Source: Amphiura filiformis (taxonomy: Eukaryota). From it: 64,000 nt of DNA. A model generated the notes under the pieces. The model had not been told where the DNA came from and ran no database searches. It saw only the letters and a list, made by a program, of their open reading frames with translations. The stretch spans positions 36,859,911 through 36,923,910 of the forward strand of contig NC_092646.1 in the NCBI RefSeq assembly GCF_039555335.1, given 5' to 3'. Of this stretch, positions 1,863-2,506 are shown piece after piece. The first letter of the stretch is position 1. The number at the start of each line of letters is the position of its first letter. Made by a program: the position numbers and the translations under genes.

Positions 1863-2506
1863 CATCATCATGTTTTGCTTCCGACTCTATGGTTCGCGTG
1901 AAACTGCTCACCAACGACGATACGAAAATAGAACTTAAACGAATGGATCAACTGAAAGTAGGCGATAACGTTGAAAGCTTTGACCCGGAAACCAACTCGG
2001 TAGCCTTTTCTGAAGTGTACTTCATATGTCATGAAGATCAAACTAGCAACTCCTCTCGCTTGATAAAGTTAGTGTTCGGTTTTGAGGATGAGAAAGAGTT
2101 ATCTCTACGTTTGTATTCGAAACATTTGGTCTACGCATGTAGTATTAAGGAGAAAGATGAACCAAATGTGGATTCCTGTCGTTATCCACCGATGAATCCA
2201 GTAACCGCTGAGAGTGTGAAAATCGGTGATATCTTGTGGCTGAGAAATTCTGCCGGTAAATTCTCGCCAAAACCGGTGATCGACATCGGTGAGTCCTGGA
2301 ATGGCATTCGACATCCAATGACTCTCAACCATTACATTGTTGTGGATGATGTTTTGGCGTCTGCTCATGTGTTTGATGAAGGGTTATACAGGCAGGTCAC
2401 GGCTCCGTTGAGGTTTCTGTATAGAATCAGCCCATCTATTACCGACACTAGCCTTGTGAAGAAGCTGGTCCAAATGTGGGAGCATGTTGAAGAAAATTTC
2501 TTGTAA
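1863..2506 (+). CDS. Gene 1 terminal exon: Hedgehog-type Hint (Hog) domain, CFASDSMVRV...APLRFLY...ENFL*. Stop TAA at 2504-2506
   Basis: Acceptor ttttattttgccag|CA, phase 1, compatible with exon B (T+CA=Ser). Strong similarity to Hh C-terminal autoprocessing domain: CF start, VKxGDxV, ..HLVYA (TXXH region), HPMTLNHYIVVDDVLASAHVFDEGLYRQVTAPLRFLY vs Hh [34 protein letters not shown]. Confidence 0.8.

Follow-up and report, generated by a model that had tools for sequence, protein, structure and literature searches.

Hog domains with a predicted re-wired active site at the C-termini of TSP1-containing proteins, one with a deaminase-like cargo, in the brittle star Amphiura filiformis

Can a Hedgehog-type Hint domain still process its host protein after parts of the Hedgehog active site have been replaced? 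This question is raised by a locus of the brittle star Amphiura filiformis (assembly GCF_039555335.1, NC_092646.1, positions 36,859,911 to 36,923,910), whose 64,000 nucleotides we refer to as the window; it has a GC content of 37% and contains spliced genes of eukaryotic type. Two plus-strand genes in the window, here called gene A and gene B, are each predicted to end in a complete Hog domain of about 213 C-terminal residues, composed of a Hedgehog-type Hint fold and a short helix-turn-helix tail and encoded by an exon at 1863..2506 in gene A and at 13627..14279 in gene B. Hedgehog autoprocessing has been studied almost only in Hedgehog itself, where Thr69 and Asp46, joined since 2025 by Cys143, are regarded as essential. 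In the brittle-star domains, Thr69 and Cys143, two of the five active-site residues of Hedgehog, are swapped for residues that are unable to take over the same task. The Hog domain as a kind is already known; what is new here is that its active site has been re-wired in a clade-specific way and that it is joined to new cargos.

The exon at 1863-2506 matched the Pfam Hint module PF01079 with an E-value of 8.6e-20 and 71.7 bits, and the two copies, whose Hog proteins are about 90% identical, scored 70.8-71.7 bits against a cutoff of 29.7. Both have the Hedgehog/intein beta-fold that defines the Hint/Hog superfamily. No further Hog copy was found by tblastn within the window beyond 1863-2506 and 13627-14279. 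A lipase match of the Hog exon, obtained in a single-sequence phmmer search against the PDB, was discarded as spurious; the family profile instead reached 1AT0 and 6TYY. An intein identity was also rejected, as the protein stops 45 residues past motif J, with no C-extein, no terminal Asn and no HN-C/S/T motif. Nor do the two proteins qualify as Hedgehogs proper: they have no Hedge signaling domain, no G-C-F, no Asp303, no Cys400 of the SCYA motif and no HWY.

We gathered 150 Hog-domain representatives with the family profile, together with close brittle-star homologs, both window copies, Drosophila Hh-C and human SHH-C. The MAFFT alignment retained 152 sequences of at least 150 residues and was anchored on Drosophila Hh-C, whose sequence was checked against PDB 6TD6 and 1AT0; we used this alignment because profile-to-PDB alignment reached only parts of the domain. 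The spliced junctions read CSCF-S-S-S/C-F-A-S in gene A and SGC-P-S/C-F-A-S in gene B, so that the residue preceding the Cys is Ser, not Gly. Among 120 Hog domains, Ser (15) is the second commonest residue at this position after Gly (43). C3-F4 of gene A (Cys1 codon at 1871-1873) corresponded to Drosophila C258-F259 of motif A, and the Cys is kept in 120 of the 124 sequences spanning that column. H87 (codon 2123-2125) corresponded to H329 (position 72), which is His in all 152 sequences.

Other active-site positions differed from Hedgehog. Gene A has H56 (codon 2030-2032) at Drosophila D303 (position 46), a column with His in 100 and Asp in 27 sequences, and the family profile search aligned the window His with the mutant His of 6TYY. 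Y84 (codon 2114-2116) fell on T326 (position 69; Thr 85, Ser 43, His 19, Asp 2, Gln 2, Tyr 1), A167 (codon 2363-2365) on C400 (C143; Cys 61, Val 39, Ser 21, Ala 17) and H168 (codon 2366-2368) on Y401 (Tyr 71, His 56, Phe 17), while gene B has His in place of T326 and Val in place of C400. Cys143 is absent from 91 of the 152 domains, and His46 and a residue other than Cys at 143 are the majority state outside the true Hedgehogs. A sequence-only reading of this stretch had described an S-C-F start instead of G-C-F in both copies and Y-S-K-H at the T-x-x-H motif. Both descriptions were borne out, the first by the spliced junctions (S-S-S-C-F in gene A, P-S-C-F in gene B) and the second by the alignment, in which Y-S-K-H of gene A and H-S-K-H of gene B lie on T326-P-A-H329, with a His but not a Thr at the canonical positions. 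That reading did not include two further departures, His for Asp303 and Ala (gene A) or Val (gene B) for Cys400.

The last Hint motif, motif J (VLASAH), is followed in gene A by 45 residues (2369-2503, with A-P-L-R at 2402-2413 and the stop at 2504-2506) that are predicted to form a helix-turn-helix (helices 172-188, 190-194 and 196-212). The Pfam Hedgehog-C model matched up to position 186-188 of 213, about 20 positions beyond motif J. The tail 'LYRQVTAPLRFLY' aligned with Drosophila 'LAHWGLAPMRLLS' and human 'WAHRAFAPFRLAH', placing P181/R183 of gene A at Drosophila P416/R418 and human SHH P379/R381 in helix 1 of the sterol-recognition region (SRR); the Pro is conserved in 120 and the Arg in 114 of the 152 domains. 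The tail thus has the A-P-x-R helix, motif K, of the Burglin Hog domain. In human SHH, the SRR consists of a helix-loop-helix whose 32-residue loop is dispensable, the two helices being the minimal unit, and H374, F377 and HWY are needed for cholesterolysis (PMC7242414). Since equivalents of H374, F377 and HWY are missing, the brittle-star tail is not a cholesterol-type SRR; judged by its motifs, it is a compact Hog-type adduct recognition region (ARR) in Burglin's sense (PMC2362128), neither of the cholesterol type nor absent. The sequence-only reading, sound in its residue calls, had maintained that no SRR follows and that the protein stops about 25 residues past the Hint core, which does not hold. 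From the residue calls together with this claim, it had argued that cleavage or ligand transfer might be altered or lost, or directed to a nucleophile other than cholesterol. An altered chemistry or a non-cholesterol nucleophile agrees with the replacement of T69, C143 and the SRR residues, whereas the argument from a missing SRR falls away and outright loss seems less likely.

Ahead of each Hog exon, on the same strand, lie two phase-1 exons, a Pfam-significant TSP1 repeat and then a degenerate Cys-rich WxxW repeat. In gene A, the first lies at 289..447 (FWGEWGPWGSCSLACGGG...; phase 1-1, AG/GT boundaries, Pfam TSP_1 on the spliced model) and the second at 571..750 (VWGSWGEWGAC...; phase 1-1, splice sites, weak tblastn similarity to TSP1 exons); the latter ends in ...QYCSCF and gives base 1 of the Ser codon preceding the Hog exon. 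The gene A Hog exon, a single exon from AG/CATCAT to TAA that comprises the Hint core, the compact tail and the stop, translates as (S)SSCFASDS...EENFL. The 5′ end of gene A is beyond the window edge, and the search of 1-288 for a signal-peptide or deaminase exon gave only a doubtful micro-open reading frame at about 151-202 with a GT donor at 203-204.

In gene B, an ATG with a hydrophobic, signal-peptide-like leader (7463..7540; MAHAILCSFLFVNAF...) lies 1 nt out of frame with the open reading frame of an AID/APOBEC-like deaminase exon (7480..8203; H-S-E...S-P-C-T-E-C zinc motif, phase-1 GTAAGA donor at its end). This exon occupies an uninterrupted 270-codon frame (7480-8292) used to 8203. It is followed by a TSP1 repeat exon (10488..10646; Pfam and splice sites), a second TSP1-like Cys-rich exon ending in ...RRCSGC (11901..12041; splice sites and similarity) and the second Hog exon, whose active-site signature is C/H/H/H/V/H. 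Exons 7654-8203, 10488-10646, 11901-12041 and 13627-14279, joined at GT-AG sites in phase 1, gave a spliced product identical to RefSeq XP_072019147.1 (P0166, 500 aa), and the second Hog copy is therefore part of an annotated gene. Because the leader is frameshifted, the RefSeq model starts at the internal Met encoded at 7654 and has no signal peptide. In the spliced models, the first TSP1 repeat scored 35.1 bits in gene A and 26.0 bits in gene B with Pfam PF00090 (cutoff 21.6); the second repeat had no Pfam match in either gene, and TSP_1 and Hint were the only domains above threshold.

The C/H/H/H/V/H signature is common to paralogs on several chromosomes and to a second genome, and in the alignment it is specific to a brittle-star gene expansion. 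Of 24 cases in which Thr or Ser has been lost at position 69, 22 fall in the brittle-star clade, where this position varies (His, Tyr, Thr, Asp, Gln) among invariant neighbors (L-R-L-x-x-K-H-L-V-Y). Gene A is the only member with Tyr at 69 and the only one with Ala at 143; of the columns that are otherwise invariant, only one carries a change private to gene A. In the clade, the tail equals the Hint core in conservation, with A-P-x-R and many other tail residues invariant, and two Cys residues (C92 and C105) are also invariant, in columns that differ from those of the central Cys of nematode-like sequences in the alignment. Between the Hog exons of genes A and B, the ratio of nonsynonymous to synonymous substitution rates (dN/dS) was 0.20 (dS 0.24, dN 0.047); the Hog domain is under purifying selection. 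As a separate observation, the TSP1 exons of the two genes (289-447 and 10488-10646) have diverged far more than the Hog exons (dS 0.71, dN 0.31), and 1820-3070 aligns with 13587-14882 at 78% identity over 1.3 kb including the Hog exon, with more than 1 kb of similar 3′ flank and weaker pieces beyond. This combination of low Hog divergence, high TSP1 divergence and flank similarity is suggestive of gene conversion affecting the Hog end, or of 5′ exons that were acquired independently.

Since Cys1-Phe2, His72, His46 and the tail are conserved, we cautiously favor the reading that the Hog domains of genes A and B are probably active in N-terminal autoprocessing with an adduct, with altered active-site details. 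Building on the fold, residue correspondences, conservation, selection and gene structure described above, we infer cleavage and every chemical step of the following scheme. Cys1 would attack the carbonyl of Ser(-1), and an N-to-S acyl shift aided by the invariant block-B His72 would give a thioester. An external nucleophile, placed by the tail and activated by His46, the counterpart of the general base Asp303, would then resolve the thioester and free the N-terminal cargo, which would be the AID/APOBEC-like deaminase with two TSP1 repeats in gene B and at least two TSP1-type repeats in gene A. The nucleophile would probably not be recognized in the Hedgehog fashion as cholesterol, and may be a different sterol or lipid, or water. 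As the clade would rely neither on the Thr69 of Hedgehog nor on the branched thioester of Cys143, the reaction would be a simplified or re-wired version. In Hedgehog, the H329A mutant is dead, T326A is strongly reduced and D303A is unable to transfer cholesterol, while D303H retains both its structure and its activity and also takes bent-ring sterols (6TYY; PMC9163320). Both C143A and C143D abolish Hedgehog processing, in which C143 forms a branched thioester (PMC12054796). Among HINT domains, extensive variation of the active site is tolerated, and BIL domains cleave even when they have no +1 nucleophile (PMC7664689).

The same replacements could instead mean that autoprocessing has been lost and that the Hint domain persists as a folded, non-cleaving C-terminal binding or scaffold module, a reading to which we give rather little credence. 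It draws on the loss of Thr69 and Cys143, whose Ala mutants cripple Hedgehog (PMC9163320, PMC12054796), and on the variation of position 69 within the clade. In a variant of it, Cys1 with His46, His69 and His72 may form a metal site, since C/H/H/H/V/H places a Cys and three His in the region through which Hedgehog, with C258, D303 and H329, binds inhibitory Zn (PMC9163320). However, Cys1-Phe2 and His72 are conserved under strong purifying selection, and a pure scaffold would have no obvious need for an N-terminal Cys-Phe. The Tyr of gene A in place of His69 would break a Cys-His3 site, yet gene A is otherwise conserved, and HINT chemistry tolerates such substitutions (PMC7664689). Because D303H Hedgehog is active and most non-Hedgehog Hog domains are also without Cys143, a non-cleaving domain appears less likely than one that has kept its autoprocessing.

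A different outcome would be plain autoproteolysis, in which water, or a nucleophile from a protein or glycan, resolves the thioester, the tail has only a membrane or structural role and no lipid is attached. We regard this as doubtful as well, although the tail is without HWY and equivalents of the H374 and F377 needed for cholesterol transfer, SRR-less Hedgehog mutants undergo proteolysis (PMC7242414) and BIL domains yield cleavage products only (PMC7664689). Conservation of the tail to the same degree as the Hint core, with motif K in 120 of the 152 domains, suggests that the tail does more than end the protein, and the invariant His at the general-base position also weighs against plain autoproteolysis.

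Several observations weigh against retained autoprocessing with an adduct. The tail has no HWY motif, and it has Arg at SHH H374 and Thr at F377. The variability of position 69 within the clade is as expected if the catalytic role of Thr69 is gone, and Hedgehog is impaired by T326A and C143A. In the window copies, both sites have residues that are not equivalent to those of Hedgehog, Tyr or His at 69 and Ala or Val at 143. To our knowledge, no Cys143-less Hog domain of the clade type has been assayed. The out-of-frame leader of gene B and the failure of an exact look-up to find an annotated protein identical to gene A (289-447, 571-750, 1863-2506) are signs of decay. The model of a neighboring paralog, P0001 (XP_072019146.1), opens in an alternative frame of its TSP1 exon and continues in the correct frame only later (compared with window 10519-10650), which hints at an indel or a decaying array copy.

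These last three observations would also suit decaying tandem duplicates, whose odd residues would be pseudogene drift. So would P0011 (L005 8995-9040), in which one extra C by the Cys1 codon turns x-C-F-A-S into H-A-F-A-S, which points either to a paralog lacking the nucleophile or to an assembly error at 3.9x coverage. We nevertheless consider decay very improbable: the Hog reading frames and their GT-AG phase-1 splice sites are intact, dN/dS is 0.20, and the indels lie in homopolymer runs or in 3x-coverage assemblies and are possibly errors. In addition, C/H/H/H/V/H is shared across chromosomes and with a second genome, which indicates that it is ancestral to the clade and not the product of recent drift. 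A pseudogene was rejected as the principal interpretation of gene A, given its intact frames and splice sites and its single private change at conserved columns.

What cargo would such a domain release? The N-terminal exon of gene B contains the deaminase zinc motif H-x-E...P-C-x-x-C, as HSE-x27-S-PCTEC in the window and as HVE-x27-PC(D/A)NC in the paralogs P0167 and P0168. Pfam matches of this exon, all over the active site, fell just under threshold (APOBEC_N 23-24.4 bits against 25, Toxin-deaminase 26.1 against 29.6, and also SNAD4, NAD1 and APOBEC2). In hhalign, the motif lined up weakly with a hand-entered sequence of human AID. A search of the PDB with the deaminase profile gave nothing significant, and a single-sequence AlphaFold2 model had a pLDDT (predicted local distance difference test) of 35, too poor to use. 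As a single query the deaminase found no homologs, and a two-sequence profile found three. The ENA assembly ERZ25070167, ophiuroid by similarity, holds three deaminase paralogs (P0167, P0168 and P0169) that are 31-35% identical to the window deaminase, and all three have a clear signal peptide and then TSP1 exons on the same strand. The loci of this assembly comprise a deaminase, two TSP1 and Hog (L001), a deaminase with three or more TSP1 up to the contig end (L006), and a deaminase with ten TSP1 up to the flank end (L007).

The deaminase exon end, C-(D/E)-L-P with a G/GT donor, is conserved across the paralogs, and one added base anywhere in 7464-7536 would make the gene B protein collinear with the signal peptides of P0167, P0168 and P0169. 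The 1-nt frameshift of gene B could be an assembly error in T-runs or a homopolymer, or a real lesion. The order deaminase-TSP1-Hog was found both in gene B, from predicted splicing, and in L001 of the other assembly; in P0005, a 900-nt Logan contig, the end of a TSP1 repeat is joined to Hog without an intron. P0169 (L007 10001-10678) has Leu in place of the catalytic His of HxE (ILVEDQL) and ten TSP1 exons after it, and may be an inactive decoy or an adhesion protein.

The gene B deaminase resembles the secreted AID/APOBEC-like deaminases (SNADs) and the classical AADs of invertebrates (Krishnan et al. 2018, PMC5889660) in its H-x-E...P-C-x-x-C motif, its echinoderm lineage-specific expansion, its rapid divergence (about 31-35% identity to paralogs) and the signal peptide that is intact in the ERZ25070167 paralogs. 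It differs from them in its Pfam scores just under threshold and in the TSP1 repeats that come after it, with a Hog domain as well in two genes or more. That survey of metazoan AID/APOBEC proteins covers echinoderm and secreted deaminases, and a search of its text found no deaminase-TSP1 or deaminase-Hog fusion and no mention of 'fused' or HINT (PMC5889660). Bacterial polymorphic toxins, as summarized in PMC3417536 from Zhang et al. 2011, combine, within a single secreted polypeptide, a deaminase with an autoproteolytic HINT domain. Relative to that summary the order is reversed: the bacterial HINT domain precedes and frees a C-terminal toxin, whereas the brittle-star Hog domain follows its cargo and would free it N-terminally, possibly with an adduct.

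Compared with Hedgehog Hh-C/Hog domains (Drosophila 1AT0, human SHH-C), the window genes share PF01079, the Cys-Phe start, the block-B His, the Ser of motif J, the A-P-x-R of SRR helix 1, a helix-turn-helix tail and a C-terminal position in a multidomain protein that is probably secreted. Unlike Hh-C, they have no Hedge domain, Ser for Gly at -1, His for Asp303, Tyr/His for Thr326, Ala/Val for Cys400 and His for Tyr401, and their 45-residue tail is without the loop, HWY and H374/F377. The His at the general-base position recalls the D303H 'general base swap' of Hedgehog (6TYY); that protein is an engineered single mutant that retains Thr69 and Cys143, whereas here the His is natural and both residues are lost. 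Non-Hedgehog Hog proteins are known in nematodes, lophotrochozoans, cnidarians, sponges, choanoflagellates and protists (PMC2362128, PMC9695228). Like nematode Warthog, Groundhog and Quahog, Lophohog, and the cnidarian and protist Hogs (Burglin 2008, PMC2362128), the brittle-star domains stand behind an unrelated secreted N-terminus, have an ARR whose motifs K and L differ from those of the Hedgehog SRR, belong to a lineage-specific expansion and have a replaced motif-J Cys (in moss and red algae it is Ser, Thr or Asp). Unlike in nematode Hogs, the brittle-star N-termini are TSP1, EGF, VWD, CUB, AIG1 or deaminase modules, and Pfam found no Wart, Ground or Qua domain in the window genes or their paralogs; the NCBI name 'warthog protein 4-like' on two paralogs reflects the Hog domain only. 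The literature that we searched contained no description of Hog expansion in echinoderms, of an architecture joining TSP1 to Hog or of a fusion between a deaminase and Hog.

Hog paralogs of A. filiformis lie on several chromosomes, with N-termini comprising EGF+TSP1, EGF+2 TSP1, VWD+TIL+6 TSP1, an AIG1 GTPase or a coiled coil, and ERZ25070167 also has 3 CUB+4 TSP1+Hog. All junction introns that we examined are in phase 1, which fits exon shuffling. In P0019 and P0017 of A. filiformis, Hog is fused to an AIG1-family GTPase and to a coiled-coil N-terminus, respectively, with no obvious signal peptide, and in P0023 of Priapulus caudatus it is fused to an ANF-receptor ligand-binding domain; these three fusions add to the unreported cargos. 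Tyr occupies the Asp303 site in the P0017-P0020 group, of which P0018 and P0020 are ENA/representative sequences. Elsewhere in the window, overlapping open reading frames at 43834-46632 on the minus strand are reverse-transcriptase and endonuclease-like and resemble a degraded LINE-type retroelement. A 279-aa open reading frame at 52081-52920, also on the minus strand, has a poly-Lys stretch, an acidic stretch matching the Ribosomal_60s C-terminal motif (28 bits) and long (A/G)PPPPPP repeats, with a repeat open reading frame on the opposite strand. A perfect (CAT)n microsatellite of about 25 units occupies 4975-5050.

A bolder and rather improbable extension of retained autoprocessing is that brittle stars recruited Hedgehog lipidation for immunity. 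A secreted, TSP1-borne deaminase would be cut free by the re-wired Cys/His/His/His Hog domain, which has neither Thr69 nor Cys143, and esterified to a sterol or other lipid selected in a manner unlike that of Hedgehog, yielding a mutator effector anchored to membranes or particles; the Cys-His3 cluster may in addition provide metal-gated release. If true, a deuterostome Hog domain would for the first time be known to process a non-morphogen cargo, and for the first time an enzyme, and there would be a natural Hog chemistry that bypasses the branched intermediate of C143. More generally, a selected clade with Cys1, His72, His46, His/Tyr69 and Val/Ala143 offers a natural experiment for asking which residues are indispensable, and it bears on what an SRR-like tail recognizes without the cholesterol residues. 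For Hedgehog and intein engineering, it may supply new self-cleaving or ligating tags, possibly with a different substrate scope. The linkage of deaminase, TSP1 and Hog suggests a delivery or anchoring route for secreted deaminases, and the brittle-star family indicates that Hog domains kept gaining new N-terminal cargos through phase-1 exon shuffling inside deuterostomes.
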